The notes under the pieces: generated by a model
Told to the model about the DNA's origin: nothing
Databases searched by the model: none
The model's input: the letters and a program-made list of their open reading frames with translations, nothing else
Assembly (NCBI GenBank): GCA_944393325.1
Contig: CALXZU010000004.1
Location: 1-57,618, forward strand
DNA: 57,618 nt
Reading direction: 5' to 3'
Source: an uncultured Clostridia bacterium
GTDB taxonomy: Bacteria > Bacillota > Clostridia > TANB77 > CAG-508
Program-made: the position numbers and the translations under genes
Shown: piece after piece, positions 11,681 to 57,618 of the stretch
How the letters are laid out: every line of letters starts with the position of its first letter
Position numbering within the stretch: position 1 is the first letter of the stretch

Positions 11681-12153
11681 CTACAAGTTTTTTACAAATG
11701 CTTTTTTACCTGTAAAGCCCATTTTCTCCCAAAAAATTCTTGCCCCTTTTCCAACAGGACATAAAAATATTTTTTTATGCCTATTTTCCTAGCCAATTTT
11801 TCTAACTCATTATAGGATTTTCTACCATATCCTTGTAATTGGTACTCCCTATCCACGATAAAATTTGCGATTTCTAATGTTTTCCGTTCTAAAAAAAACA
11901 TTACTTCAACATATGCAACGACTCTTCCGCATTCGTCTTCATACACTAGTTGTTTAAACGAATCTTCTGGTTGAAAATAAAGCTCTTTTAAAAATTCTTG
12001 GTAAGTTGGAAGATTTTTTCTTAAGTCCCATTCATCGCTTTTTTGCCCTATCTCGATGCTATATCCTACTTTATACGAGCAGTTGATGTAGCATTGGTAA
12101 TCCTGCATTTTTGCTTGTAGCCGTCTAATTCCTCTTGTATTAGTGTTTTCCAT
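11681..12153 (-). CDS. GNAT acetyltransferase, apparent 1-base deletion in an A7 run near 11770-11776
   Basis: FIVDREYQLQGYGRK acetyl-CoA motif; one more A restores IKKIFLCPVGKGARIFWEKMGF. Confidence 0.7.
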
Positions 12154-31375: not shown

Positions 31376-31410
31376 ATAAATATCCACCAGCTTAGCTAGT
31401 GGATATTTAT
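31376..31410 (-). terminator. Terminator after the cotJC 3' fragment
   Basis: ATAAATATCCAC...GTGGATATTTAT inverted repeat. Confidence 0.65.
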
Positions 31411-31604
31411 TAATCACATTTATTATTCATATAAAATTTTTTCATTGCAAGTTTATCTTGCACTCCACGAAGCGCTTCTCCAAATCTCTGGAAGTGTACT
31501 ACTTCTCTTTCTCTCAAATATCTTAATGGGTCTAATACATCTGGATTATCTCTACATAAATCAATTAATTTTTCATAAGTTGCCCTAGCTTTTTGTTCTG
31601 CTGC
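31410..31604 (-). pseudogene. cotJC: cotJC (Mn-catalase family) 3' fragment
   Basis: AAEQKARATYEKLI...DPLRYLREREVVHFQRFGE; similarity begins at the GCAGCAGA core (31597-31604). Confidence 0.88.
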
Positions 31605-31623
31605 ACCTTTGAAAGTACAACAA
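31597..31623 (-). other. Recombinase-proximal attachment junction: core plus attP arm
   Basis: Minus strand TTGTTGT-ACTTTCAAAGGT-GCAGCAGA, directly after the recombinase stop codon. Confidence 0.85.
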
Positions 31624-33186
31624 TTAAATTTTCCAATGTATTTCAATAGGTTTCTTCTTTGTTTCTGGGTCTTTTGCTCCTACTTCTATGTAATCAATTA
31701 AGTTTTCAACCATCTCTCTTGTTAATTCTGTTACATTAGTATACTTTTCTAATATATATTTTTTATTATTTAAAGCATCTTGCTCATTATCAATCTTCTG
31801 TAATTTTTGTTTTCTTTCATTCAATATTTTTTCAAGGTTTTCTTTTTCTTTATTAAAATTTTTGTTAAATTCTAAAAATTGTTCTTGCGTTATTATTTCA
31901 TTAACTTTATCCAAATATAAATTTTGTATAATTTTTGTTTTTTTATCTATAGTCATTTGATATTGAGAAATTTCTTTTCGCAATTCTTCCTTTTCATTTT
32001 TAAATTGTTTTAAAATAATACTTTCTTTTAATTCATCAACATTTAAATATTGTTCTATTAATGAATTCAGTTCCTTTAATACTGTCCTTTTAAGTACATT
32101 TTCTGATATGAAACTACCCTTGCAAGATGATTTATCGATTTGTCTTGTTGGACATCTTAAATATCTATCTTCACGAGTTTTACTACTTTTTAGAATATAG
32201 CCACAATATTTACATTTGCACTTTTTAGCAAATACTCCTATTTTTCCACCTTCAAATGGTTTAAAATTATTATTTACTTTTTTTTGTACCCTATTCCATA
32301 ATTCTATATCAATTATTGGTTCATGTGTATTTTTTACTATAACCCATTGATCTTTTGGTTTTGGTTTATTCTTTTTACTTTTATATGAAATACTACCATA
32401 TCTACCTTGTACCATATTTCCTATATACATCTCATTTGTTAACATACTTGAAATTGAAGAATACTTCCATAATGTTCCTGTTTTTCCTTTAGGTTTTTTA
32501 TATGCAATTCCTTGTTCTAATTTATATTGTGTAGGGTTTGGTATTCCTCTATTATTCAATATTCTAGCTATTGCTGTTTTCCCATAACCTTGATCATATA
32601 ACTTAAATACTTCTCTTACAGTTTGTGCAGCCTCTTCATCTATAATTAAATGCCCTTTTTTATCTGGATCTTTTTTATATCCATATAATGCTATTCCTCC
32701 AGTAAATAAACCATTTTTTCTTTTATTTTCTAAAACAGTTTTTATATTGTCTGATAAATCTTCTAAAAACCATTCATTTACCAGTCCATTAATTTGCCTT
32801 GACTTTTTATTTCCTTTTATATTAGTATCAGCATTATCAACCAAACCAACAAATCTTATTCCCCATTCAAGGAATAAACCATTTATGTATTTTTCTACTA
32901 ATTCCAATTCTCTTGTAAACCTGCTTTGACTTTTACATAAAATAATATCGATTTTTCTTTCTTCAGCTAACTTTAATACTTTATTAAAATCAGGTCTATT
33001 TCTATCTGCACCAGTATAATCATCATCACTATAAATACCTTCTATATCCCAACCTTGTTTTATCGCATACTCGGCTAGCATAAGTTTTTGGTTTTTTATA
33101 CTTGTACTATCATCCTCCTCATTTTCTTTATTTCTATCTTCCTCTGATAATCTGCAATATATTGCTACTTTTAATTTTTCGTTCAT
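31624..33186 (-). CDS. Large serine recombinase, SpoIVCA-like
   Basis: IYCRLS catalytic Ser, YSDDDYTG, SRFTR, recombinase domain, zinc ribbon CKYCG...RC...C, coiled coil. Confidence 0.93.
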   Translation of the reverse strand: MNEKLKVAIYCRLSEEDRNKENEEDDSTSIKNQKLMLAEYAIKQGWDIEGIYSDDDYTGADRNRPDFNKVLKLAEERKIDIILCKSQSRFTRELELVEKYINGLFLEWGIRFVGLVDNADTNIKGNKKSRQINGLVNEWFLEDLSDNIKTVLENKRKNGLFTGGIALYGYKKDPDKKGHLIIDEEAAQTVREVFKLYDQGYGKTAIARILNNRGIPNPTQYKLEQGIAYKKPKGKTGTLWKYSSISSMLTNEMYIGNMVQGRYGSISYKSKKNKPKPKDQWVIVKNTHEPIIDIELWNRVQKKVNNNFKPFEGGKIGVFAKKCKCKYCGYILKSSKTREDRYLRCPTRQIDKSSCKGSFISENVLKRTVLKELNSLIEQYLNVDELKESIILKQFKNEKEELRKEISQYQMTIDKKTKIIQNLYLDKVNEIITQEQFLEFNKNFNKEKENLEKILNERKQKLQKIDNEQDALNNKKYILEKYTNVTELTREMVENLIDYIEVGAKDPETKKKPIEIHWKI

Positions 33187-33282
33187 TTTATCAATTTCCT
33201 CCTAAATTAAAATTCAATAAAATGAACCAACACTATAATATATTTTATAATATAATGTTGGTTTCGTAAATTGTATGTTGGA

Positions 33283-33384
33283 TTATTTATTGATACTTAA
33301 ATTAACTATTTTTTGCCAGACTTCATTAAATTTTTTTCTTCTTTCCTCATCATTAGTTGAAATAAATACATTTATTATATCCAT
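33283..33384 (-). CDS. 33-aa ORF upstream of the recombinase, candidate directionality factor
   Basis: GAGGTG RBS then MDIINVFISTNDEERRKKFNEVWQKIVNLSINK*; not in the ORF track. Confidence 0.55.
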   Translation of the reverse strand: MDIINVFISTNDEERRKKFNEVWQKIVNLSINK

Positions 33385-33458
33385 GACAGCCACCTCATTT
33401 AATGATATTCAAATTTTTCATTTTTATAAACAGATTTTAATATTTGTATTATTATTAT

Positions 33459-33941
33459 TTACATTTCATTATTTATTATTTCATCTGCTAACTTTTCTAT
33501 TTCAACGGGAGAATGTAGTTCCATGAGTGTCAAAATATAGTTTCCGAATAATTTGCTTGTTATTTTTAAATTTCCAGAACTTTTTAAATTTTCTCTTGCA
33601 ACTATTCCATAAGACGCTACTTGTTTTCTTGTAATAAATTCTGTTTTTTCTTCTTTTTCTAAAGCTATCCTTTCAAAATAACTTTCATCTTTAGTAGCTT
33701 TATCAATATCAATTCCTAGTGAAATAATAATTCCCTTATCTACTTCTTGCATTTCTTTTGAATTTAATGTTCCTATATAATATCTTAATCTTTCTTTATC
33801 AATGACTCTTATTTGCTCAAGTAAAATTAAAGAATTTTTAGGTAATCTTTTTGCATCACCTTTTATAAAAATGTGAGTAGGCAATTTTGCCTTAACTTTT
33901 ACTTTACTTGTAATAGGTGCAATTATTACTGTTGGACTATA
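33459..33941 (-). pseudogene. 5'-truncated PemK/MazF-family toxin with C-terminal extension
   Basis: YSPTVIIAPITS...LPTH...LLEQIRVIDKERL...IGTL; N-terminal segment and start absent. Confidence 0.75.
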
Positions 33942-33959
33942 AATATAAGAAGTTCGTTA

Positions 33960-34100
33960 GTTCCATTAAACACATACCGTTCAATAAAAACTCAAAACAA
34001 ACTGCTTAATATATTTGATATTTATGAGGATAATATTACTCCAAAACAATTTTTGAAAACATTTGTAACCTATCTTAGATACAAAAAAAATAAGAAATAA
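33960..34100 (+). pseudogene. Possible 3' remnant of an unknown divergent gene
   Basis: VPLNTYRSIKTQNKLLNIFDIYEDNITPKQFLKTFVTYLRYKKNKK* with no own start or RBS. Confidence 0.35.
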
Positions 34101-34138
34101 GTTAATAGATTTTATCTTAAAACTTATTTCTTGTTTTT

Positions 34139-35323
34139 TTATTTATAAATATACTCTTTATAGTCTTTTAATATTCCCTCTACTCTTTCTTCAAATGGTT
34201 CTCTTACTAATGCATTAATTTTATTTCCACTAACTCTCATTGCATTTTGAAAATCTTTTAACCCTATATCGTTTTCTATTAAATTGAAAACAGGAGCATT
34301 TTGTTCTAATTTTTCTTCTGATTTTTTTATTACATTAATGTCAAACTTTGAAAATACCATATCTGGTCTTTTATCCATTATCTTATTAAATGTTTCTTCA
34401 GAATTTTTAGCAGTTGCAACAACCTCTGCATAATCTATATTATTTATTGTATTAACCAATCTATTTAATATATTATCATTATCATAAGAAACTAACACTT
34501 TAATTTTGTCTTTTAAATAATTTCTATTATAATCTTCATTCATTATTTTTACAATTTCATTAACTCCTTGATTTAAAGCATTTCCTATTACTACATCTTT
34601 CTTATTTATTGTTCTAACAATATTTCCATTTGCAGTAACAAGATTATATTTGCTTTCCATATCATCATTATCTCTGTAATTTACTTTACCTATGTTTTTA
34701 TAATTTTTTTGGAATATTTCTTTAGTAGACTCAAATTGTTCATCTGTGATTTCAAATTTTTCTTCATTTTCTTTTGCTAATTCTCTTAATGGAGCGAATC
34801 TAAATATTCTCCATTCATTTATTTTATAATTAGAATTTAAAAATTCTCCAAGTTCTTCTATGTAATCAATATTTAATTTTGTTACAACAGTATTTATTTT
34901 GATTCTAATATTTTTACCGTTTAAAATATCTAATACTTTTTTTATTTCTGCAAAATGATTTTTACCTCTACCCATTTGTTCATTTATATCATCATTAATT
35001 GTATCTAATGATAATGTTATAGTATCTAAATAATTTATTGCTTCTCTCATTTTTTCATTATTTGCAATTATAGAACCATTTGTTATTAATTTACTTTTTA
35101 CTCCGTTTTGTTTTGCTATTTTTAACAATTCTATAATATTAGGATATAACAATGCTTCTCCTCCAGAAAAAGTTATATAATTCACACCTGCTCTTATTAA
35201 TTTCATAAGAACCTCTTTGTTTTCTTCAAGACTTAATTCTGGAATATTTCTAAATCCATGACAATAAGCACATTTTTGATTACACCTTGTTGTAATTAAC
35301 CAACATACTTCTCTTTTCTTCAT
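34139..35323 (-). CDS. Radical SAM protein fused to a C-terminal receiver-like domain
   Basis: CNQKCAYC, SGGE, TNGS motifs; C-terminal KIKVLVSYDN...EVVATAKNSEETFNKIMDKRPDMVF. Confidence 0.75.
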   Translation of the reverse strand: MKKREVCWLITTRCNQKCAYCHGFRNIPELSLEENKEVLMKLIRAGVNYITFSGGEALLYPNIIELLKIAKQNGVKSKLITNGSIIANNEKMREAINYLDTITLSLDTINDDINEQMGRGKNHFAEIKKVLDILNGKNIRIKINTVVTKLNIDYIEELGEFLNSNYKINEWRIFRFAPLRELAKENEEKFEITDEQFESTKEIFQKNYKNIGKVNYRDNDDMESKYNLVTANGNIVRTINKKDVVIGNALNQGVNEIVKIMNEDYNRNYLKDKIKVLVSYDNDNILNRLVNTINNIDYAEVVATAKNSEETFNKIMDKRPDMVFSKFDINVIKKSEEKLEQNAPVFNLIENDIGLKDFQNAMRVSGNKINALVREPFEERVEGILKDYKEYIYK

Positions 35324-35410
35324 TATTTTAACATCCTTCCTATATTATGTATGTTGATTATATACCAATTTTTACCATTTGTCTATTATCAAAACAGCAA
35401 CAGCTGTTCA

Positions 35411-37325
35411 ATCGAGTAGGAACTAAGTGATTATTTCACTTAGTGTCCTCTCACACCACCGTACATACCGTTCGGTATACGGCGGTTCAATAGAATTAAT
35501 ACTTTAACAGTGTATACTAGAAAGACTTAGATATCCTAATCTTTCTAGTGTTTTATTATTTAAAGCTATATGCATTTCTGGCGTATTCGATATTCTCCAA
35601 TATGATTTCCTTGAATTTGCTATTCTGTAAGCTTTATCTTTATTTATTCCCATTTTTATCAGGTTATCATATTTTGTTTTGATTTTCTTCCATTGTTTCC
35701 AATAGCACATTCTTATTCTTCTTCGTATCCATTCATCTAGTTTTTGTACTATCTTTTTCATGTTTGCTATTTTGAAATAATTTACCCGACCTCTTATTAC
35801 TTGTCTCAGCTTTAGAAATCTTGTTTCCATACTCATTGCGTTACTCCTTGATGTTATTTCTCGTATTTTATCTTTGAATTTCTCTATTGACTTTGCGTGT
35901 ATTCTTATTTCAACTTCTCCTTTGCTTTGATAAAAAGAAAATCCTAGGTATTTTATTCTCCATGGTCTATCAACTTTGCTTTTCTCTCTGTTTACTCTTA
36001 GTCTTAATTTCTTCTCAATGAACTTGGTAATGCTTTCCATTACTCTTTCTGCTGCTTTTCTACTCTTGGTAAAGATTATACAGTCATCTGCATAGCGAAC
36101 AAACTGCAATCCTCTTTTTTCAAGTTCTTTGTCTAGTTCATTAAGCATAATGTTACTTAGTATTGGAGATATGTTTCCTCCTTGTGGTGTTCCTTTTTCT
36201 GTCTTTTCAAATACTCCATTTACTAGTACTCCTGCTTGTAGATACTTTCTTATTAGCGACACAACTTTATCTTCATTTACTGTTCTTCTGATTATTGATA
36301 TTAGCAAATCTTGGTTTACTGTATCAAAGAATTTCTCTAAGTCTAAGTCTACTACCCATTTATATCCATTATTCATTATTTCTTTAGCCTTTAGTATTGC
36401 TTCGTGGCAACTTCTATTTGGTCTGAATCCATAACTATTTCCTGAAAATATTGGTTCATAGATTTTGCTTAATTGTTGTGCTATTGCTTGTTGTATCACT
36501 CTATCTACTACTGTGGGTATTCCTAGCTTTCTTTTGTTTCCGTCTGCTTTTGGTATTTCTACCCTTCTTACTGCCTTGGGATTGTATTCCCCTTTCCTAA
36601 TGTCTTCCTTGATTTGTTCGCCGTTTTCTTTCAGATATTGTAGAAGTTCATCTACCTGCATATCGTCAATTCCACTAGCTCCTTTATTTCCTTTCACTCT
36701 TTTATATGCTAAGTTCATATTATCTCGTGAAAGTATTTCCTCAAGTATTTCATTAGTTACTGTTTTAGTATCGATTTCTTCTAATTCAGACACATCAAGA
36801 ACACTAGGTACTTCTACTTTACCTTCAGTTTCCAACCTATTCTCTTGTAGATAGTCTTCTATTCGAAGTTGTCTACCATTTTCATATTCTTGATTACCTT
36901 TCATTAAAACAAATCCTCCTATCGTTCAACCCTTCACAATTCGTATATATCCAAATTGCTACTATGGTATCTGCTGACTTCTGATATTTCATTCTAATAT
37001 CACTATTAGCATTTTCATATCTATTTCAAGATATTTCCAAAATACCAGACCTCCCCAGGTAAGAACAACAACCTTCATCTCATATATCTGCCACATTTAC
37101 TGTATGAGCTTCGGATAGTTACTAGGGCTTTGCTTTGTTTAGCAAGCTCGCCCAACTCAATTCAGCCTTATATGTGATTTCTGTTCGTCAGACCGAGATT
37201 TTGCAACTCTGGCTTCTTTCAGATTCCTCCTCACGAAGGACACCCTTGCCATTTACTAACAGTTCGCCACTATCAGGCACTGTATGGGACTTTCACCCAC
37301 AAGTTGTTGCCCATGCTGGGCACAC
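35411..37325 (-). mobile_element. Class C (IIC) group II intron, 1915 nt
   Basis: 5' GTGTGCCC, domain V GAACCGCCGTATACCGAACGGTATGTACGGTGGTGT, domain VI ending CTCGAT; inserted just after an intrinsic terminator. Confidence 0.93.
35504..36904 (-). CDS. ltrA: Group II intron reverse transcriptase/maturase, no endonuclease domain
   Basis: LGIPTVVDR, GTPQGGNISP, RYADD, domain X. Confidence 0.93.
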   Translation of the reverse strand: MKGNQEYENGRQLRIEDYLQENRLETEGKVEVPSVLDVSELEEIDTKTVTNEILEEILSRDNMNLAYKRVKGNKGASGIDDMQVDELLQYLKENGEQIKEDIRKGEYNPKAVRRVEIPKADGNKRKLGIPTVVDRVIQQAIAQQLSKIYEPIFSGNSYGFRPNRSCHEAILKAKEIMNNGYKWVVDLDLEKFFDTVNQDLLISIIRRTVNEDKVVSLIRKYLQAGVLVNGVFEKTEKGTPQGGNISPILSNIMLNELDKELEKRGLQFVRYADDCIIFTKSRKAAERVMESITKFIEKKLRLRVNREKSKVDRPWRIKYLGFSFYQSKGEVEIRIHAKSIEKFKDKIREITSRSNAMSMETRFLKLRQVIRGRVNYFKIANMKKIVQKLDEWIRRRIRMCYWKQWKKIKTKYDNLIKMGINKDKAYRIANSRKSYWRISNTPEMHIALNNKTLERLGYLSLSSIHC

Positions 37326-37326
37326 T

Positions 37327-37370
37327 AAAAAAGCAGCAGACTATGAATTATATCATAGTCTGTTGCTTTT
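37327..37370 (-). terminator. Intrinsic terminator serving as IIC intron 5' exon target
   Basis: AAAAGCAACAGACTATGA-loop-TCATAGTCTGCTGCTTTTTT then A, then intron. Confidence 0.85.
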
Positions 37371-37385
37371 TATAACTTTCAATAA

Positions 37386-37883
37386 CTATAATCTTAATAA
37401 TATCAGGTATATTATAATTGATATTATTATAATTATTATGATGAGCATTATTTGCAATTCATATTTATAAAAAAAATCTATTATTTTATATTTTAATTTT
37501 TTTACAAATAGAATTACATTAGAATTTTTTATTTTTGAAAAATGTTTTGTTTTTCTATTTGGAACATTTAATTTAATTCTATTTAAAGAATTCTTACATT
37601 TTTCCTTTACATTAGAAAAGGAAAGTTGAACTTCTTGCCATTTTTCGTCAATTTGGTATTTATATTTAGTATTATAATTATTTTGAAACTCTGCAAATTT
37701 TTCTTTTAATATTGGTGAAATTTTAGCAATACCTATCCCTATAAAATATATCAATTGCTGTATTGCTATTATAAAAATTTTAAATAAAAATACAATTCCT
37801 TTACCTATTAAAATAATAATATTCCAAATAAAAAACCACTTTATAAACTCATCAAAAAAATTCCGTTCATTATTTTCGCTCAT
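37386..37883 (-). CDS. Hypothetical membrane protein
   Basis: 165 aa, N- and C-terminal hydrophobic segments, GGAGG RBS. Confidence 0.6.
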   Translation of the reverse strand: MSENNERNFFDEFIKWFFIWNIIILIGKGIVFLFKIFIIAIQQLIYFIGIGIAKISPILKEKFAEFQNNYNTKYKYQIDEKWQEVQLSFSNVKEKCKNSLNRIKLNVPNRKTKHFSKIKNSNVILFVKKLKYKIIDFFYKYELQIMLIIIIIIISIIIYLILLRL

Positions 37884-37972
37884 TTTTCTTCCTCCACATA
37901 TAGATAGCTTTGAAAGTTAAAGTTAGGGGTACTACAAATAGTAATACCCCTAACTCATTATGCTATTTCTCC

Positions 37973-39928
37973 TTAACTCAACCTCATTCTATAAACTTGT
38001 GTACTATTTTGTATGAACAAATATGTACAAGCATTTTTCATATCCTCTCTGATAAAAATTTTGGAATCTTTATTTACGACTCCAATATTTATCTGACTGA
38101 CTGTTGACTCTTCAACTGTTTTACCTGATTTCAAGAACAGAACTCTTTTATCAGCTGGAATCACAAGCATCCAGTTGAAATAGATACTATTCTTAAGATT
38201 GAGTCCTCCGAATGAAAACGCTCGGAATTGTTTGAGAACTCTTCCTTTACGTCTGACTATATAACAGTCATATCCATTCGAATTTCTCCTTTTGTTGATT
38301 ACACACCAATTTTTACTTATGCTATCATACTTGATAGCTCTTGGGAACTGTTCCATCAGCTGTTTTTTCTGCTGACCGTTAACCTTGATATCCAAATGCC
38401 CAGCTCCATTTATTGCACATATACAGTAATCTCCATCTCTATTAATCTCATAGATAAATGGATTATCCTCTGCATTTGCAACTGTTACTGCGCAATTATC
38501 AACAGTCATATAGACTTTAATCAGCTCGTTTTTACCATTCACATAGAATAAATAATCTCCACTGATTTTTAGTCTTGAACTCTGCTTTAAAATAATAGCT
38601 GAATACAATTTCTTTCCAGCTTTATTGCAGATTTCCAGATTACAGGCAGGATTATTAGAATCTCTACACTTCTTTAATTTCTCTCCAAATGAACAATTCC
38701 CATAAAGAGAATTAAATTTTCCAAAGAGAGTATAAAAGAACTGCTTTATTCTACTTATTGCCCTAACGCTAATGGTAATCCCATTTCCCAAAAAATACAT
38801 TTCCTTTACACGAGAATCAACCTCTTTTTCTATTGTACTTCCATCTGAATTAATGTGAATAGCCTTTTCATTAAAGTCAAAATAGGTTGAATCGTCTATA
38901 ACCTTTCTGACTTCATTATCTGGAAATATTGCATATCTTCCATACGAAATCGAAGTTACGCTATAAGTTCTAAATGTTTCTAAGGCATTTTCACTAGAAG
39001 ACTTACAGACTGGACATTTTGAATATCTTGAAGAATTGTAATAATGACCTTTTTTACACTTTTTCAGGCTTTTCCTCGTTAATTCGAGTGAATCCAAGAT
39101 ATTAAATCTTTTTCCACCTTCAAAGATTTTTAGGAAGTCATTTTGCAATCCCTCAGACATCCATGCTACATGTTCAATCTTAAAGCTGTCAAGTTTTTTC
39201 AGATTATGATTACCAATAATTGAAATACGATTCAATGCTTTTAAAGGTTGATCATAATCACGTGCAAGTGGATATACACCATCAAATGGATTAAATCCAA
39301 CAAGCATTTCAAAAACAACAACAGCTAATGAGAAACAATCGGACTGTTGTGTGTATTGGTCAATAACAACGCCATTTGCACTAAAGTCCCTTACTTGAGG
39401 GTCAATGTACTCAACTCTTCCTGTTTTATCGGCTTCATATCGTCCTTCAATTCCCCATGTATCAGTATCACATACAAAAACATCTCCATCTCTTGTCATG
39501 AACTGATCGGCATGGAAATCACCGATAATAATTCCTTCTGAGTGTAAATCTTTTACAAGTTCTGCTAATTTACACGCTATGTTAAGAATTTTTCTCTCAT
39601 CCATTGCGTGTTTTCTAGCCTTAATTTGAAAATCTTTAAGACTTACACAATTTTTAAGCATAGGCATTGTGTATCCACAGCATCTTCCATTGCATCTAAT
39701 GATTTCTTCTGGCAAAGCAGCATTTGGGAAACGACTCTTATATTTTATCAGCTCCCTAAGTTTTGCTTCCTTTTCCCGAATATTAGAATAATCAGTAAGT
39801 GCAAATATCTTAATTACCTTTTCGTTCTTGTTATCATAGTAAATAATTGATTGATCTCCAACTGGTCCTTCGGTAAGTTTACTAAGAAAATTAAGATAAG
39901 ACTTTTTGCTTGCAAAATCGTAACGCAT
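37973..39928 (-). CDS. Ser/Thr protein kinase-like protein, YegI/TerY-associated type
   Basis: KVIKIF, IGDFHADQF, CDTDTW, SDCFSLAVVVFEML, HYY...CPVC knuckle, beta-rich C-terminus. Confidence 0.75.
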   Translation of the reverse strand: MRYDFASKKSYLNFLSKLTEGPVGDQSIIYYDNKNEKVIKIFALTDYSNIREKEAKLRELIKYKSRFPNAALPEEIIRCNGRCCGYTMPMLKNCVSLKDFQIKARKHAMDERKILNIACKLAELVKDLHSEGIIIGDFHADQFMTRDGDVFVCDTDTWGIEGRYEADKTGRVEYIDPQVRDFSANGVVIDQYTQQSDCFSLAVVVFEMLVGFNPFDGVYPLARDYDQPLKALNRISIIGNHNLKKLDSFKIEHVAWMSEGLQNDFLKIFEGGKRFNILDSLELTRKSLKKCKKGHYYNSSRYSKCPVCKSSSENALETFRTYSVTSISYGRYAIFPDNEVRKVIDDSTYFDFNEKAIHINSDGSTIEKEVDSRVKEMYFLGNGITISVRAISRIKQFFYTLFGKFNSLYGNCSFGEKLKKCRDSNNPACNLEICNKAGKKLYSAIILKQSSRLKISGDYLFYVNGKNELIKVYMTVDNCAVTVANAEDNPFIYEINRDGDYCICAINGAGHLDIKVNGQQKKQLMEQFPRAIKYDSISKNWCVINKRRNSNGYDCYIVRRKGRVLKQFRAFSFGGLNLKNSIYFNWMLVIPADKRVLFLKSGKTVEESTVSQINIGVVNKDSKIFIREDMKNACTYLFIQNSTQVYRMRLS

Positions 39929-40177
39929 AATTTCCTCCTATCATAGAGTTTCCTTTTTGTGGGATATAGCATATGATTGGTAGATTTTACTACCATTGTC
40001 AAAGTTCTTAGTTAAGAATTTTGAAAAAAACTCTTTAACTGCAAATATTTTATCATTTTTTATCATTTTTGTCAATATTATGTAAATATAAGTTGCTATT
40101 AGCAATATTGTTAATTAATAATTTATTATAATTATAGAAAAGAAGCCCAAATATGGACTTCTTTTCTATAGCTCATT

Positions 40178-41200
40178 TCAAGACCACTTTTTAATAATCC
40201 TTCTTATAAATTGTGTACTTTCAGGAACATATGCGTTGAGATTATCAGCATTTATTATATAAAAAGCAAATATCTCAGCAAAATATTCTTCTTTAGAAGA
40301 AATAGCATAGTAAAACTCTTTTTCAAGTTTATAAAAGTTTACTAGCCTCATTTTTTCTGAAAAGCACACTTTTTCAAAGTAATTTTTATTACTAGCAAAA
40401 TTTTCTTTGTAGTCTAAATAGTGTCCGAATTCATGCAATGTGGTCTTTTTGATATCTGGTGCTGAGCTTCTTATAATTATCTTCTTATTGAAACTCGAAC
40501 ACAATCCATAAATAGAATTTCCCTCAATTTCTTCATGAGAAATCCTTATTTTCCACCTATCATTTATAAATCTTCGTTGCAATTTAATAGGTAGCATCAA
40601 AAAAGCATCTTTTACACTCTCTACTTGGTCATTAATTACATCCCGACCTATTTCAATATAATTAGGTAATTGAAAAATATTTTCATTAAAAATTTCACCA
40701 GTTACCCATTTCTTTAAATAAAGATATAGTGATGATAGCTTTTTGCTTGTATAATTTCCTTCTGTTTCTATAACAAACGAAAACATTTCAGAAAATATTT
40801 GTATTTCGTCATAATGGAAAACTTCTCTAAAGGTCATAAATAGTCTAATTTCATTTTCTTTATCTTTTATAATTCGATTAAATGTTTTTGAGTTTTGAAG
40901 ATTTGCATACTCTATATAGACATAACAAGCCATAGCTTTCCAAATAATATTGTCCAATACAGTAGGAATAGATATGTTAATCCATATCTTTTTATCATTT
41001 CCATTAGCAAAATACTGCACAAATGCACCACCACATTCTTCAGGCATATTGTCAGTTATAATCAATTGCCACATATCCTCTATGAAACGCTTTTTCCAAA
41101 ATGCAGGCACTTTTCCTAATTGCTTGTTTAAAGATTCAATTCTCCTTTTATTTAGAGTTTTGGAATGAAGTATTGGAGCTCTTTTTGAACTATTAAACAT
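40178..41200 (-). CDS. ATLF/PPEP-1-like zinc metallopeptidase with a degenerate N-terminal repeat
   Basis: TLHEFGHYLD plus EEYFAE; two internally similar halves. Confidence 0.7.
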   Translation of the reverse strand: MFNSSKRAPILHSKTLNKRRIESLNKQLGKVPAFWKKRFIEDMWQLIITDNMPEECGGAFVQYFANGNDKKIWINISIPTVLDNIIWKAMACYVYIEYANLQNSKTFNRIIKDKENEIRLFMTFREVFHYDEIQIFSEMFSFVIETEGNYTSKKLSSLYLYLKKWVTGEIFNENIFQLPNYIEIGRDVINDQVESVKDAFLMLPIKLQRRFINDRWKIRISHEEIEGNSIYGLCSSFNKKIIIRSSAPDIKKTTLHEFGHYLDYKENFASNKNYFEKVCFSEKMRLVNFYKLEKEFYYAISSKEEYFAEIFAFYIINADNLNAYVPESTQFIRRIIKKWS

Positions 41201-41299
41201 AACAACTCCTCCTTATGGTCGAAACAAGCTATTTATTAAGTTATACACCATATATATTATCATTTTTAAAATATTATGTCAAGTTTCTTTTTCTACCTA

Positions 41300-51457: not shown

Positions 51458-51673
51458 TAAATCTTCTTGTAAATTTGCAATTGGATCTCCTTTACAAGCA
51501 AGTACTGATGCTGAAAATGGAACTCCAGCTGCAGATTGTGGGTATACATCTACACCATGGTCAGTATAATATGCATCAAGTCCCGCTTCTTGTATTTGCT
51601 CTATTGTAGCATTTTTAGTTAATTGATGCACTATAGTTCCTACCATTTCTAAATGTGCTAATTCTTCTGTTCC
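51450..51673 (-). pseudogene. cotJC: cotJC (Mn-catalase family) middle fragment
   Basis: GTEELAHLEMVGTIVHQLT...DHG...YPQSAAGVPFSA...KGDPIANLQEDLAA; no homologous sequence or RBS upstream. Confidence 0.88.
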
Positions 51674-51750
51674 ATGATGTTGTCAATTAAAAAATTTGTA
51701 GTTATTGGCTGTGAAATGGTATATAAAAAAGTTCACAAAGTGAATTAAAG

Positions 51751-51769
51751 TACACTAAGTGAACTTTTA
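51751..51769 (+). repeat. 19-bp direct repeat, copy 1
   Basis: TACACTAAGTGAACTTTTA, identical to 55594-55612; also the right arm of the hairpin after toxN. Confidence 0.8.
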
Positions 51770-51773
51770 TTTT

Positions 51774-52304
51774 TTAAGCTTTATATTCAGCACTTTTTTC
51801 TTCTAATAGTTTGAAATCACAACTTAGCTCCTTATAAAATTTAGCCATCTTACTTTTACTATTTTTAGTAACTATACTATAAATCTTTTCTGCTTTTTCC
51901 ATAATTTTTGCTTTATTTTCGGGCTTGTTTATGTAAGAATATTGTTCTGAAAGTAGTCTTTTATATCCATAACTTTTACTTTTTATATCTAATAAATAAA
52001 CACTTTCTTGTGGTACTGGTATCATATCTGAAAATCTAATTATACCTAAATCATTTTTTGTTTTAGTATTTCTAATTTTGAAAAAAGTTAAATTATCTTT
52101 ATATGTTTTATGTTTTGGCTTTGGAGAAAATAAAGGTGCAAAATAATAATGTTCTTCAACAATAATCACAACTCCTATGTATGGTCTTTTTTCATTTTTG
52201 TTATAAGCAATATGTTTATCAAATTGACTTAAATATTTAATATAATTATCATCTATAATATAAAAATTTAATTTTCCTAATTTTATTTTCTTTGAATTTT
52301 TCAT
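51774..52304 (-). CDS. Type III toxin, ToxN/AbiQ family endoribonuclease
   Basis: LNFYIIDDNYIKYL...RPYIGV...YFAPLFSPKPKH...LGIIRFSDMIPVP...DFKLLEEK. Confidence 0.88.
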   Translation of the reverse strand: MKNSKKIKLGKLNFYIIDDNYIKYLSQFDKHIAYNKNEKRPYIGVVIIVEEHYYFAPLFSPKPKHKTYKDNLTFFKIRNTKTKNDLGIIRFSDMIPVPQESVYLLDIKSKSYGYKRLLSEQYSYINKPENKAKIMEKAEKIYSIVTKNSKSKMAKFYKELSCDFKLLEEKSAEYKA

Positions 52305-52325
52305 TTATTCCTCCGTATTACAAAT

Positions 52326-52355
52326 ATAGGGGATACTTTTTTAAGTACCCCCATA
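52326..52355 (-). terminator. Terminator between antitoxin RNA and toxin gene
   Basis: GGGGGTACTT-AAA-AAAGTATCCCC with a weak U tract; canonical type III layout. Confidence 0.8.
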
Positions 52356-52361
52356 ATTTTT

Positions 52362-52520
52362 CTGGAAACTCGTTTATAGTAAACTAAAGGCTCGTTTCTA
52401 ACCTAATGTTCAATAGGATATTCGTTTATAGAATTCGCATTCTAAAGGCTCATATCTAACCTAATGTTTAAATTTGCACTTGTTTATGACATTAATCAAA
52501 GGCTTGTGCAACCTAGTTTA
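52362..52520 (-). ncRNA. Type III antitoxin RNA, three pseudoknot repeats
   Basis: AGGTT...AGCCTTT...TAAAC units with periods 52 and 58 nt, between promoter and terminator. Confidence 0.85.
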
Positions 52521-52554
52521 TTTGATAAATTAATTTATCAATATTAGTATATTT

Positions 52555-52583
52555 ATTATACTTCATTTTATTTACAAAATCAA
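52555..52583 (-). promoter_or_regulatory. SigA promoter of the type III TA operon
   Basis: TTGATT-17 bp-TATAAT; perfect 20-bp palindrome TTGATAAATTAATTTATCAA at 52522-52541 just downstream. Confidence 0.75.
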
Positions 52584-52641
52584 TATTTTTTGTTGAATTT
52601 TCATAAATTTCACATACATCAAGTGAATTAATTAATATACT

Positions 52642-54510
52642 CTATTTTTTATCTAGTTCACTAATCTCTTTGCTTTTTATCCATTCATTATATTTTTTTA
52701 TAAGGTTTTGTTCAAAGCCAATATATGAGTTTATATCAATATTTTTATATTGATATGTTTCATATATTTTTTTAAATATAACTGTGATAAAATCTTGATT
52801 TTCTAGTATATTATTATTTTTAATATATTCAGTCAAAGGTTTTATTTTTAACAATAAGGAGTCTTCTTCTATATTTCTACGTTTATAATTCCTATATTCA
52901 AAATCAATTGTTTTTTTGTCTATAATTTCTTGGATTTCATCTATTTTTGTATTGTCACATGATAGAATATACATCAAATCATCAAATCTATATTTCGCGA
53001 TTTTTGGAATTTCCTTATTCTCTACAATGTAATCTTCTAATCCAATATCGTAATCATCCATTTTTTGTAAATTTAATATACAATTAGCATTTTCTCCAAC
53101 TAACCAATTTGAGGCTATTTCTATTCCAACCCATTTTGCTTTTTTATTCCTAGTATCTTCAATTGATAAAATAATATCATTTTCTTTTATTCTCTCAATC
53201 TTTTTTAATTTTTGATAATAACAATATATATTTTGTCCCGTATTTAAATTTCTAAAAAAATCTAGTTCATCATTATAATACAGAATATGATATACATATA
53301 TACTATAAAATATATCTAAATAATAATTTGAATCCACATCGTTGTTCTCTACTAATTCTAAAAAAGCTGATATTATTCCAGAAAGAATTCTAATATTTTC
53401 AATTCTCGTGTTGTGCCATATTTTATTTATATCATCACTAATGTCATAGAAAAATTTTACTAATTGTCCCTTTTTCTCTAATGAAAAATCCATATTGTTA
53501 TCTAAAATTTTATTAGATAATTCTATAAATATTTTTTCGTTTGAAACAATCCTAAATTTTTTACAATCTAATTTACATTCAAACATTTCATGCACAAAAG
53601 TTTTACTAATTTCATTAGTATTACATAAAATTATAACTTTCATATCATATCTGTCAACTAATTCATTAATAATTCCTATGACTACATTGTATCTTGATAA
53701 AACTTGGTACTCTACACTACTTTCATCACTACTTCTATGTTCAGATGTATTATACATTCTTCTGTTACTCATCTGAAGTCTAGTAAGAGCTCTTCTCATT
53801 TTTCTTTTATTTATCCTATCATTTATATCTCCTAATGGTGTAATCCTTTCAAAATCATCAAAGATAAAAATGGAGTTTTGTGATATATCTTTTAATTCAT
53901 AGTCACTTTTTAATATTCCAACCAAAAAGTCTCCTATTATCGGAATTTTGTTAATTAAATTTAATATTTTTTTAGTTATTGAATCATCTTCAGTTTCAAA
54001 AATTGTTTTCATTTCTTTTAATATTGTCTCTCTACCCTCTAAGCCAAAGCATGAAATTTTATAAACTTTTCTATTTTGATACTTATAATAATTATTAAAA
54101 AATCTATTTATTGTATAAGTTTTTCCACTTCCCCAGTCTCCTATTAATAAAAAAGCTCTCTTATCTTTACTATTTAAATATTCATATATTGACTTGTATA
54201 CCTTTTGTGTTTCTTCGCTTTTTAATTCTTTTAATTGCTTTCTTTTTAGATATTTATTTTGATATAAATATTTCCTTATTAGAAAAAACACAAAATATAC
54301 CATAATAGAAATAATAAACAAATAAATCTCTACTTTACAATATTTTATAATTTGTTCATATATTTCTGATATTTTACTTGCTATATTATCGTTGAATATA
54401 AAAATTATCAGTTTTTTTATTGTTTCTCTAGAAGAATCATACATAAACATTAAATATATAATTATATTTGTAATGGATAAACTATTAAATACTTTTACTA
54501 TTTTTTTCAT
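52642..54510 (-). CDS. KAP-family P-loop NTPase with N-terminal TM segments
   Basis: LIGDWGSGKT Walker A, IFIFDDFER Walker B. Confidence 0.8.
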   Translation of the reverse strand: MKKIVKVFNSLSITNIIIYLMFMYDSSRETIKKLIIFIFNDNIASKISEIYEQIIKYCKVEIYLFIISIMVYFVFFLIRKYLYQNKYLKRKQLKELKSEETQKVYKSIYEYLNSKDKRAFLLIGDWGSGKTYTINRFFNNYYKYQNRKVYKISCFGLEGRETILKEMKTIFETEDDSITKKILNLINKIPIIGDFLVGILKSDYELKDISQNSIFIFDDFERITPLGDINDRINKRKMRRALTRLQMSNRRMYNTSEHRSSDESSVEYQVLSRYNVVIGIINELVDRYDMKVIILCNTNEISKTFVHEMFECKLDCKKFRIVSNEKIFIELSNKILDNNMDFSLEKKGQLVKFFYDISDDINKIWHNTRIENIRILSGIISAFLELVENNDVDSNYYLDIFYSIYVYHILYYNDELDFFRNLNTGQNIYCYYQKLKKIERIKENDIILSIEDTRNKKAKWVGIEIASNWLVGENANCILNLQKMDDYDIGLEDYIVENKEIPKIAKYRFDDLMYILSCDNTKIDEIQEIIDKKTIDFEYRNYKRRNIEEDSLLLKIKPLTEYIKNNNILENQDFITVIFKKIYETYQYKNIDINSYIGFEQNLIKKYNEWIKSKEISELDKK

Positions 54511-54544
54511 TTTATTCTCCTATTTTATGCAACCTTTTTATTTG

Positions 54545-54925
54545 CTATTTATTTAATAATGAATATCCACCATCTGGCGTTACTATTGAACCCGTAAATA
54601 TCTTAGATGTTGCTAACATTAAATATACTTCTGCAATTTCTTTTGGTTCTATAAATTTATTAATTGGTATATTTTTAAGCCAAGCTTGTTTCATTTCATC
54701 TGTTACTGTATCCATATAGTTTGTATATACAAATCCTGGTGCAACTGCATTTACATATATTTTAGGGGCTAATTCCATTGCTAAAGTCTTTGTGAAACTA
54801 TTCATACCTGCTTTTGCAGAACAATATCCAATAATACCTGCTCTACCAGAATAATCTATACCTCTAATTGAAGATGTGCTAACAATCCAACCTTCATCAT
54901 TCATTAAATCTATAGCATATTTTGA
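54545..54925 (-). pseudogene. SDR oxidoreductase C-terminal fragment
   Basis: SSIRG, YCSAKAG, VNAVAPG, TPDGG; N-terminal Rossmann fold absent. Confidence 0.8.
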
Positions 54926-55527
54926 ACTATTTTGAAAAATGTATATGCTTCTTCTGATTTTTTGTCATAATCAATAGATGTCGCTATAAATAAATCTGTT
55001 ATTTTTTGATAAGCCATTCTTTCGCTTGTACGAATTACTTTAATTCTTGCTAATAACTCATCAAAATATTGCCTATTTACTTTGCCACCTTTTAAAAATC
55101 TATCATCATCTAAAGCAAAACCTTTTACCATATATTCTTTTATTATTTTGTTTGCCCATTGTCTGAATTTCACTGCTTTTTTTGAGTTTACTCTATAACC
55201 AATTGATATAATCATATCTAAATTATAGTATTTCGTTTTATACTTATGTCCATTTTTTCCAATAGTCTCCAAAATGGAGAATGTTGAATCTTCTTCTAAT
55301 TCCTCTTGTTCATAGATATTTGCTATATGTTTATAAATTGCTTTATCATTAACATCAAATAATTCTGCAATAGCTTGTGCATTTAGCCAAACATCTTCAG
55401 TTTGTAAAATTACTTCTATATTAGTATTTCCTTCTTCATTCGTATAAAATACGATATTATTTTTATTTCCAATTAATTTGTTATTATAATAAACCAACTC
55501 CGTTTTTTGTTTGTTATATATTATCAA
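54910..55527 (-). pseudogene. 3'-truncated RhuM-family protein
   Basis: YNLDMIISIGYRVNS, FRQWA, EYMVKGFALDD, RIKVIRTSER; stops at FFKIVQNML*. Confidence 0.75.
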
Positions 55528-55593
55528 ACAATTGTTCTTTTGTCAATTGATTTATTATATATTTATTATATTTTGTTTAATGATTTTTATTAA

Positions 55594-55612
55594 TACACTA
55601 AGTGAACTTTTA
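55594..55612 (+). repeat. 19-bp direct repeat, copy 2
   Basis: TACACTAAGTGAACTTTTA. Confidence 0.8.
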
Positions 55613-55794
55613 CTTAAAGAATGGTGAAATTTTGAATTCATTCAGTGAACTTACGTACTCTAAAGGGCATTTTTAAGTCGTTCATTTGGTGAATTTTTAC
55701 ATCAAATTTGCTTAAAATTTTTGTTCTTTTAATAACTCTAGGAGGCTTGTCCTTCTACGTGTGTAGGTGATGTGTTAAGCATTACTATCCTGCT

Positions 55795-57312
55795 CTATTT
55801 GTTATTTTTATCTATAAAATATTCAATTTTGTCATCGATGGAATCTATTTTATTATTTTGTTTCTTTATTTCTTCCAACTGAATTTTTATGTTGTCATCA
55901 ATATTTTCTATATTTGGATCTTTTAAAAATGTCAAACCTATAGTAATAAAAATACTAATTATAGCAATAAGAATCGATACCTTTGCTAACCAAGACGTAC
56001 TTTTATAATTAGCAACTAACATTTTATTATTATAAGATACTTCTAGTTGTTCATAACTTTCTAACAATTCTTCATATCTTTTATTTTGGAATTGCAAACT
56101 ATCTTCTAAATATTTATAACTATAAAAATTGTTAGATAATTTTACATTATTAAACATCATTTTATATTTTTGAATTGCTTTTATTGACTTATCATATTCT
56201 CTATAAATTTTACTTTCTTTTTTAGAATAGAATTTATATAAATTATTTCTTATAATAGAAAGTTTTCTACTAAATTCTCCTATGTTATAAAAATATAAAG
56301 TAATAATAAAAAAGTTAATTAACTCAGATTGAATAATAAACATTTTTTGTAACTCATCGGCTTTATATATAACAAGTCTAGCTGACCTATTTATTTCTTG
56401 AGAGTTCTCTTCACAATCAAATATGAATTCAGAATCTATAAATTCATCACTTTTTTCAGTATATCTATATACAACAGATATATTATCTTTCGTTTTGTCA
56501 AAATTAAATACATCATATGTATGTAGAAATCTATTATCCTCATTTAAGTTATAATTTGTAGTATAAACATCGATACTAATAGGAGGTTTATTATTCTTTT
56601 TATTTAAACTAATATATTTAGATATAAAATCAATTGTCCTAGTTTTTATTTCTATTATATAGTCATTTATAATTTTTCTTCTTGTAATATCTGGATTCCA
56701 TGACGTTTTCGTAACTAATGTCTTTTTTCTACTATAATATTTAATATATTCTTCTTCTCCCTCACAATCAGATATTATCAAATTATTTATTTCTTTTTTG
56801 CATTCATCAGAAAGATTAACTTCAAAACTAATCCCAATAAAATCATTTGACAATTCAAACATTGTTATAGAAATAAAATCAACTATTTTATCAAGTTTCC
56901 TATCTTTTGGTGTTATATCAAAATGTTGACAGTATCTATTCATATTATCAGCAGACGCGAATTGCAACACAGCTGATTTTAAATCTTTTTCCATAACAGT
57001 AGAAATTATCTTTTTTGTAACCGGATTTTTCCTAATTAGTTCATTTAGTTCTACATATAAATTACTAATCTTCGCTTTAGGATAAGTATCAAGTATATAA
57101 ATTTGTCCGTTTAATCCGAAGTACCTATTTTTATCTATTTTTGTATTCTTCATTCTAGGAACTTTATCATTATATAATAAATTTTCGTTTATTGATAAAG
57201 GTATTATCTTGCAAGTTTTTAATCTTATGCTTTTTCTTAATCTTTGATAATTTTCAAATATTCTATCTTTAGTAGTTTTTCTCTTTTTGGAATATTTATT
57301 TTGAATTTTCAT
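55795..57312 (-). CDS. Hypothetical 505-aa protein with C-terminal TM and coiled coil
   Basis: Long ORF with AAGGAAGG RBS; no family recognised. Confidence 0.6.
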   Translation of the reverse strand: MKIQNKYSKKRKTTKDRIFENYQRLRKSIRLKTCKIIPLSINENLLYNDKVPRMKNTKIDKNRYFGLNGQIYILDTYPKAKISNLYVELNELIRKNPVTKKIISTVMEKDLKSAVLQFASADNMNRYCQHFDITPKDRKLDKIVDFISITMFELSNDFIGISFEVNLSDECKKEINNLIISDCEGEEEYIKYYSRKKTLVTKTSWNPDITRRKIINDYIIEIKTRTIDFISKYISLNKKNNKPPISIDVYTTNYNLNEDNRFLHTYDVFNFDKTKDNISVVYRYTEKSDEFIDSEFIFDCEENSQEINRSARLVIYKADELQKMFIIQSELINFFIITLYFYNIGEFSRKLSIIRNNLYKFYSKKESKIYREYDKSIKAIQKYKMMFNNVKLSNNFYSYKYLEDSLQFQNKRYEELLESYEQLEVSYNNKMLVANYKSTSWLAKVSILIAIISIFITIGLTFLKDPNIENIDDNIKIQLEEIKKQNNKIDSIDDKIEYFIDKNNK

Positions 57313-57324
57313 TTTTTTCCTTCC

Positions 57325-57618
57325 TTATAAAAAACTTACTATATCTTCAAATGTATCATATCCACTTTCACTATTTATATGTCCTCCATCTGGTATTATA
57401 ATTTGTTCTGTGGCAATTTCATCCGCAAACTCTTTTTCTACTTCATATTTTACATATGGGTCATTATCTGAATAAAAACAAATTATTTCATCTACATACT
57501 GTTTTACATCTTTCAAATTATCAAAGTACATTGATTCATTTACATTATCATATTCTTCATTTATTCCTAAATAATTATTAAATCCACATATAGATATTAA
57601 TTTTTTAATCTTTATCTT
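57325..57618 (-). CDS. Alpha/beta hydrolase, YdeN/RBBP9-like (5' end outside window)
   Basis: Frame open to the window end; YSDNDPYV and GGHINSESG motifs. Confidence 0.75.
   Translation of the reverse strand, partial: KIKIKKLISICGFNNYLGINEEYDNVNESMYFDNLKDVKQYVDEIICFYSDNDPYVKYEVEKEFADEIATEQIIIPDGGHINSESGYDTFEDIVSFL

Follow-up and report, generated by a model that had tools for sequence, protein, structure and literature searches.

We analysed a 57,618-nucleotide stretch of DNA from an uncultured Clostridia bacterium (GenBank assembly GCA_944393325.1, contig CALXZU010000004.1; this whole stretch is referred to as the window), in which cotJC, the 594-bp last gene of the cotJA-cotJB-cotJC spore-coat operon, is interrupted by two inserted elements, element 1 and element 2. 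Using the B. subtilis CotJC protein as a tblastn query, we found residues 133-189 at window positions 31604-31431 and residues 61-135 at positions 51673-51449, both on the minus strand, and no match to residues 1-60 anywhere in the window. The identity of the gene was confirmed by Pfam Mn_catalase matches and by 7,977 homologues. A first-pass annotation of the window had reported that cotJC similarity stops a second time, at the codons GGA ACA GAA GAA (about 51674), and that the N-terminal third of the gene is absent, with accessory genes running to the window end and no recombinase among them. All of this holds: tblastn and translation place the start at 51673, the minus-strand translation across the breakpoint passes from ...QHH straight into GTEELAHLEMVG..., the four codons occupy 51673-51662, and the genes mapped from 51674 to the end include no recombinase. 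The parts of the interrupted gene and of the two elements are listed below; those beyond the window lie on an overlapping metagenome contig, L001.

31410 to 31604, minus strand: cotJC 3′ piece, codons about 134-197 plus stop (tblastn, reconstruction).
31597 to 31604, minus strand: 8-bp core GCAGCAGA, attR of element 1, at site C.
31605 to 51449, minus strand: element 1 (19,853 bp core to core), which carries an insertion sequence (IS) besides its kinase / vWA / phosphoesterase module.
31624 to 33186, minus strand: LSR1, a large serine recombinase (LSR) of 520 aa with Resolvase, Recombinase, Zn_ribbon and DUF4368 domains (Pfam), 20 bp from attR1.
51450 to 51457, minus strand: 8-bp core GCAGCAGA, attL of element 1.
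51450 to 51673, minus strand: cotJC middle piece, codons 62-136, with a core at either end (tblastn, reconstruction).
51661 to 51673, minus strand: 13-bp core GGAACAGAAGAAT, attR of element 2, at site A, with the crossover GA at 51664-51663.
51674 to 57618, minus strand: right-hand 5.9 kb of element 2, contained in L001.
L001 6875 to 7070, same strand as the other pieces: cotJC 5′ piece, behind cotJA-cotJB, 8.58 kb right of the middle piece.
L001 7342 to 8901, minus strand where cotJC is on the plus strand: LSR2, a 519-aa LSR, 272 bp from attL2.
Rejoined attB at site A: ...GGAACAGAAGA followed directly by ATTAGCAC...
Rejoined attB at site C: ...GCAGCAGA followed directly by ACAAAAAGCTAGG...

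To extend the window, we searched for contigs on which the 505-aa protein of element 2 is encoded unchanged. One of them, L001 (ERZ24773469 NODE_695), is 100% identical to window positions 45795-57618 (an overlap of 11.8 kb) and reaches 9.7 kb further. With cotJC on the plus strand, it carries cotJA, cotJB, the cotJC 5′ piece (a 69-aa Mn_catalase open reading frame (ORF), including a 4-codon read-through), a 62-aa ORF, LSR2 and a 45-aa ORF (all three on the minus strand), followed by the genes for Ser_hydrolase, the 505-aa protein, a truncated RhuM, a short-chain dehydrogenase (SDR) fragment, a P-loop protein and ToxN, and then by the cotJC middle piece and the genes of element 1. The 2.6 kb of element 2 that the window lacks, LSR2 included, correspond to L001 7071-9694. 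The first-pass annotation had expected cotJB, a 5′ fragment on the same strand, a matching core and possibly a second recombinase further right; each is there, the core being the 13-bp GGAACAGAAGAAT that in this strain flanks the inserted DNA, and the simple deletion or misassembly that it had named as the alternative is refuted. Two contigs from other samples, L008 and L199, have the same layout. In all, the double-cut layout was seen on 23 contigs from two chicken-gut studies, with both elements present every time, and both junctions of the middle piece are covered with 0 differences in Logan contigs of four runs (X1-X4). The three-piece arrangement is no assembly artefact. NODE_695 ends at about the gene for a 426-aa DDE_Tnp_1 transposase within element 1 (window 41490-42770), so the IS of element 1 is a repeat that breaks assemblies.

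When the three pieces are joined in silico, they give an in-frame CotJC of 197 aa. Its best homologue is P0001, a full-length, uninterrupted CotJC with 99% identity, and on the contigs that encode P0001 (L134-L137) cotJC has the same neighbours as in the window. Between the joined ORF and the uninterrupted conspecific gene there are 9 substitutions and 0 indels; the 3′ piece differs from the intact cotJC of L135-L137 by 2 substitutions only, and over 12.4 kb L135 matches the doubly excised locus, as reconstructed in silico, at 99.4%, with 0 indels at both junctions. As the gene is uninterrupted in L134-L137, both insertions are polymorphic within effectively one species, and their empty sites are known. 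cotJC carries two independent insertions, one per element, and rebuilding it takes two excisions, as had been supposed from the window. Element 1 sits at codons 134-136 (AAE, site C) and element 2, 8,582 bp core to core, at codons 62-65 (GTEE, site A), so that the gene is broken at GTEE/LAH and AAE/QKA. In alignments to the Mn catalases of Anabaena (KatB, 4R42/6J42) and L. plantarum (1JKU), these breakpoints map onto the conserved EExxH and AAE helices, which agrees with the conserved motifs named in the first-pass annotation. From knowledge of the Mn catalase family, we take the EExxH and AAE residues there to be di-Mn ligands.

The joined gene also has a local peculiarity just left of the site A junction. 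At L001 7042-7060 (cotJC nucleotides 168-186), compared with conspecific strains whose site is empty, 7 substitutions are packed into 19 nt (background about 1 per 250 nt), and they change NDI to NDV. We considered that this patch had come from attP or had been transferred together with element 2, and rejected this because the attL arms of other hosts are host-specific and NDV occurs in intact relatives. Since the NDV allele is found in the intact close relatives P0002, P0003 and P0006, the patch looks like a short recombination tract or a natural mosaic.

The two cores of element 2 lie at L001 7058-7070 and L001 15640-15652, the latter corresponding to window 51673-51661. We mapped the crossover with the host-specific variants in attL and attR of two other carriers, L002 and L003: in attL the bases peculiar to each host extend as far as GAG/GAA, and in attR they resume at GAG/CTT, which leaves the GA of the second GAA codon as the place of strand exchange. 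Around this GA, attP2 as reconstructed forms an imperfect palindrome, its arms matching at 21 of 30 positions, a symmetry that is as expected for a serine integrase. LSR2 has the Resolvase and Recombinase domains and zinc ribbon of a large serine recombinase (Pfam) and matches the PHROG 95 integrase family at 1.8e-99. In an alignment, LSR1 and LSR2 both keep the YxRxS motif with the catalytic serine. LSR2 is preceded by a conserved, sigma-70-like promoter sequence (TTGTAA-17-TATAAT, L001 8970-8942) bracketed by a perfect 11-bp inverted repeat, TTGTAATTTGT / ACAAATTACAA, which is a possible operator. The leader upstream of LSR2 (L001 8940-9225, minus strand) is conserved as well and consists of a sigma-70-like promoter (9220-9192), a terminator hairpin (9169-9145), the 45-aa ORF, which is itself conserved across the LSR2 family, and lastly the LSR2 promoter. 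A conserved CATAAAT box in front of this ORF resembles the CATATAAT box, likewise conserved, in front of cotJA. Small ORFs accompany both recombinases (45 aa upstream and 62 aa downstream of LSR2, 33 aa upstream of LSR1), and by eye those next to LSR1, LSR2 and the site-B recombinase LSR3 described below have no obvious mutual similarity.

attP1 is likewise imperfectly palindromic around its GA crossover. LSR1 is 41% identical to LSR3 and 23% identical to LSR2, and the attP arms of the two elements are unrelated (ATTGACAxCATxATGG and TTGTTGTxC...GCA). The unrelated arms and the low identity of the recombinases mark the two systems as independent, and the option, left open in the first-pass annotation, that the same LSR might make both excisions is rejected and not needed.

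Across many metagenomes, each of the two recombinase families is dedicated to its own site in cotJC. LSR2 relatives at 63-91% identity adjoin cotJC pieces in about 20 uncultured Clostridium/Clostridia species represented by metagenome-assembled genomes (MAGs) from mouse, rabbit and chicken; at these site-A loci the 5′ piece ends at aa 65-69, the 3′ piece starts at aa 62, or both, and the elements measure 3-11 kb. More distant relatives, at 40-46%, also lie next to cotJC pieces in Paenibacillus lacisoli, Ruminococcus and Muricoprocola. Relatives at 44-49% sit at the ends of 35-45 kb viral contigs in IMG/VR; three IMG/VR contigs with relatives at 46-47% hold a cotJC piece starting at aa 63, which indicates that true prophages use the same site. 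LSR1 relatives (43-72%) were found at 80 metagenome loci, and in nearly every informative case cotJC breaks at aa 133-136; the AAE/AAD breakpoint was found in about 45 loci of this family. On another IMG/VR contig (L148 11577-11869), a phage-type LSR has beside it a cotJC piece of aa 63-136 that breaks off at AAE with 71 nt of the contig left; this may be another doubly cut cotJC, beside a prophage. The cotJC 5′ piece of MAG BRZ_BB bin97 (L023, about 12110-12125) reads ...CAA TAT CGG AGG ACC..., in which skipping the C of CGG restores QYGGPDGE; in-frame CGG is absent from the element 2 genes, cotJC, LSR1 and LSR2 of the window lineage.

Three-piece cotJC genes occur in at least five other lineages, one of which uses a third site. 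In this lineage, a mouse-gut MAG (L048/L009), all three pieces are present: a 5-kb element with an LSR2-like recombinase (87% identical) separates piece 1-65 from piece 62-102, and behind the latter come an element of about 8 kb, which carries Fic, Mob_Pre and the 537-aa LSR3, and then the last piece, which aligns to aa 93-194, true cotJC sequence resuming at about aa 100. The third site, site B, is DHGV at about codon 102, and it is occupied alone in L049. The site-B element (about 8 kb; L048 6392-13628, L049 6392-12956) encodes Fic, the 537-aa LSR with DUF4368, DUF6076 and a Mob_Pre relaxase and, unlike elements 1 and 2, appears to be mobilisable. In the other lineages (metagenome contigs L060, L083/L128, L085 and L107), middle pieces extend from about aa 60-63 to aa 136, and the CotJC pieces are only 42-60% identical to those of the window. 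Both an LSR2-like (46-48%) and an LSR1-like (53-60%) recombinase lie beside the middle piece in L060 and L085, and in L083 and L107 an LSR1-like recombinase alone lies within the covered locus. Double occupancy was seen at about 4-5 of the 24 informative site-C loci and at about 3 of the 23 site-A loci.

The part of element 2 inside the window contains the following features.

51774 to 52304, minus strand: toxN/abiQ toxin gene of a type III toxin-antitoxin system (Pfam ToxN_toxin 1.9e-41; PADLOC AbiQ 5.7e-46).
52345 to 52600, minus strand: toxN leader, in which a promoter-like TTGATT-17-TATAAT and a hairpin enclose three repeats, each about 57 nt long and starting TAGGTT...AGCCTTT (by eye).
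52642 to 54510, minus strand: P-loop NTPase of 622 aa, a candidate for a role in defence (sub-threshold Pfam match to AAA_22; PADLOC PDC-S49 8.4e-15).
54545 to 54904, minus strand: 3′ fragment of an SDR gene, a pseudogene scar (Pfam adh_short_C2 positions 119-236 of 236).
54910 to 55527, minus strand: truncated RhuM / PDC-S05, N-terminal half only (Pfam Virulence_RhuM positions 7-126 of 252; PADLOC PDC-S05).
55795 to 57312, minus strand: 505-aa orphan protein, found as the exact protein in 133 blocks of the contig collection.
57325 to 57618, minus strand: 3′ part of Ser_hydrolase, whose full length of 183 aa (L001 9437-9988) extends past the end of the window.

The ToxN-family gene is preceded by tandem repeats, read by eye, and a hairpin, the arrangement of a type III toxin-antitoxin system; the hairpin is GGGGGTAC...GTATCCCC and follows the three divergent repeats. 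The leader has no Rfam match and its divergent repeats were not detected by TRF, and we regard it, from its layout, as a probable ToxI-type antitoxin RNA. The 505-aa protein has no family match in Pfam, PHROGs, PADLOC or NCBIfam. Phage structural, packaging and lysis genes as well as conjugation genes are absent from element 2, and its PHROG matches are the integrase, weak matches of the RhuM N terminus to anti-repressor and transcriptional-regulator families, and families of unknown function. By gene content, then, element 2 is small and of a non-phage kind, and its cargo is of the defence type. In six other carriers (L002-L007) the element is 99.1-99.4% identical, in host flanks that are 80-88% identical or non-syntenic, and this near-identity within diverged flanks shows recent horizontal spread by site-specific insertion. 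The host DNA downstream of cotJC in L004 (16390-16919; also L006 and L007) carries an intact SDR gene, whose 3′ 388 bp are 97.7% identical to the SDR fragment of element 2 (window 54540-54927), and behind it a 147-bp piece that is 98.6% identical to the middle of toxN (window 51977-52123). These pieces point to a past exchange between element 2 and a chromosome of this type.

LSR elements are established in sigK, spsM, spoVFB, spoVR, gerE and yabG (PMC4191935, PMC5595907, PMC10747680), and a passage of a preprint (bioRxiv 10.1101/2021.11.22.469490), citing Abe et al. 2013 (Mol Microbiol 90:415), names cotJC as a frequent integration target. In the literature that we searched, we found no two elements in one sporulation gene or one cotJC, and no defined cotJC sites with dedicated LSR families. 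Like skin in sigK (SpoIVCA in B. subtilis; CD1231 and the recombination directionality factor (RDF) CD1234 in C. difficile), the cotJC elements lie inside a mother-cell sporulation gene and have a recombinase at one end and a short core repeat that permits precise rejoining of the ORF. Unlike skin, they share a single gene, which encodes a structural and enzymatic coat protein rather than a sigma factor, and carry no phage remnants. The closest in kind to element 2 is gin in gerE of B. cereus ATCC 10987 (GirC/GirX; PMC5595907), a non-prophage element with an LSR and a small accessory factor, although gin measures 28.6 kb, has three recombinase genes and is a single insertion, whereas element 2 is 8.6 kb long, encodes a single LSR along with defence cargo and is joined in its target gene by a second, unrelated element. 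For SPbeta in spsM (SprA/SprB; PMC4191935, PMC5499854), an active phage of 134 kb and in this respect unlike element 2, the timing of excision depends on a small RDF expressed from a mother-cell promoter of its own (PMC4191935). With its sigma-70-like promoter for LSR2 and its 45-aa ORF, insulated separately by the terminator hairpin, element 2 has a layout that is compatible with this model if the ORF and its promoter have the roles that we infer for them. A precedent for genes that require several excisions is found in the nif/hup/fdxN genes of cyanobacterial heterocysts (PMC4874684), which are highly fragmented in Calothrix NIES-4101 (PMC11249958): there, too, genes for a terminally differentiated cell are cut and then restored by several recombinase-mediated excisions, but phylum, cell type and recombinases differ and excision has been shown experimentally. 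By their sequence, both cotJC elements have the structure of the skin, SPbeta, vfbin, gin and yin type, namely a position within a sporulation gene, an LSR of their own and att sites that restore the ORF.

In B. subtilis, cotJ is expressed in the mother cell under sigma-E, and both elements are inserted within the coding sequence of this sporulation gene. We consider it rather probable that the two independent LSR elements in cotJC are each excised in the mother cell to rebuild the gene. Each recombinase, together with a small directionality factor, would excise its own element precisely in the terminally differentiated mother cell, as in skin, SPbeta, vfbin and gin; for element 2, the conserved 45-aa ORF just upstream of LSR2 is a candidate for this factor. 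The operon would be transcribed throughout, full-length CotJC would come only from chromosomes that have lost both elements, and the spore would keep both. The first-pass annotation had raised the possibility of an AND-gate. The layout does entail two excisions; a regulatory design is a different matter. That both insertions are recent and still polymorphic speaks against a gate that evolved as such, and the two-key requirement would be a by-product of two parasites on one safe target. A broader proposal, which we offer tentatively, is that cotJC is a docking gene for at least three lineages of LSR elements with fixed sites at GTEE, DHGV and AAE, and that carriers of two elements, a sizeable minority, can make CotJC only once both have been excised in one mother cell, by independent mechanisms and under developmental timing.

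Two simpler accounts of the locus can be set aside. If the N-terminal third had merely been lost, or the contig misjoined, the absence of the 5′ piece from the window and the unitigs that break within the middle piece would be explained; those breaks, however, coincide with k-mers that are common to the cotJC of other species, the 5′ piece, cotJB and cotJA stand on the same contig in each of L001, L008 and L199, and the junction-spanning contigs of the four runs contradict a chimera through independent assemblies, so that we give a deletion or chimera virtually no credence. It is also very improbable that a single recombinase, that of the window, serves both breaks or that the inserts are parts of one composite element: the proximity of the two inserts is all that speaks for this, and against it stand the second, dissimilar LSR of element 2, the unrelated attP arms, and the occurrence of element 2 alone in L002-L007 and of LSR1-type elements alone in about 19 loci. 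An assembled joint from 50940 to 51751 with 26 letters in between was rejected as spurious: the contig behind it is short, and its match on either side covers about 20 AT-rich nt. Beyond the loose ends at 51450/51453 and 51673/51674 the sequence runs on into intact cotJC; these continuations differ in sequence from this strain and belong to other species.

The main rival is of another kind, and it accepts both insertions: as a dispensable gene of highly conserved sequence, cotJC would be a safe harbour that integrases have evolved to target and that is permanently inactivated, a second hit then costing nothing, which would account for the double hits. Several observations favour it over excision in the mother cell. 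In B. subtilis, CotJC is not known to be essential for forming spores. The two insertions are polymorphic and of recent date, so the intact cotJC fragments are no proof yet of selection for reconstitution. No excised junction (attB/attP) of this strain was seen in runs X1-X4, a weak negative, as the runs with the window sequence, all chicken-gut metagenomes, were covered as assembled Logan contigs, beyond whose reach rare excised alleles lie; attP2 is also absent from IMG/VR. At the locus no clear sigma-E or sigma-K promoter was established, and the small ORFs beside LSR1 and LSR2 match no family in the searches made, PADLOC and PHROGs among them, so homology yields no directionality factor. 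The frequent double hits at sites A and C fit the absence of an extra cost once the gene is broken, and element 2 shows decay in its truncated RhuM and SDR fragment. On the other side, the cotJC pieces of all of the about 60 interrupted loci give full-length alignments without stops, including those of the hosts with divergent CotJC pieces, and the double allele persists across many samples in a gut anaerobe that is transmitted by spores. Every experimentally studied LSR element in a mother-cell sporulation gene is excised in sporulation (PMC4191935, PMC5595907, PMC10747680), and LSR excision is mechanistically precise, so that reconstitution would be free once a directionality factor is expressed. 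We regard permanent inactivation as doubtful, though far from negligible. The intact pieces, the persistent double allele and, weakly, the SPbeta-compatible layout of LSR2 are indirect and suggestive points in favour of excision in the mother cell.

The elements in sporulation genes described so far occur one per gene, and here a gene of 594 bp holds two. If there is no excision, cotJC would be a landing pad at which gut spore-formers tolerate defence islands, which would be relevant to the movement of anti-phage cargo such as ToxIN between species. If both elements do excise, the locus would provide two orthogonal, naturally co-resident LSR/att pairs, and the site-B element a third, pairs of a kind that is useful for genome engineering. 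Excision of both in the mother cell would also show how mobile elements of independent origin come to be stacked on a single developmental target, and endospore formers would have in cotJC a natural two-key switch, of a kind so far known only from cyanobacterial heterocysts.

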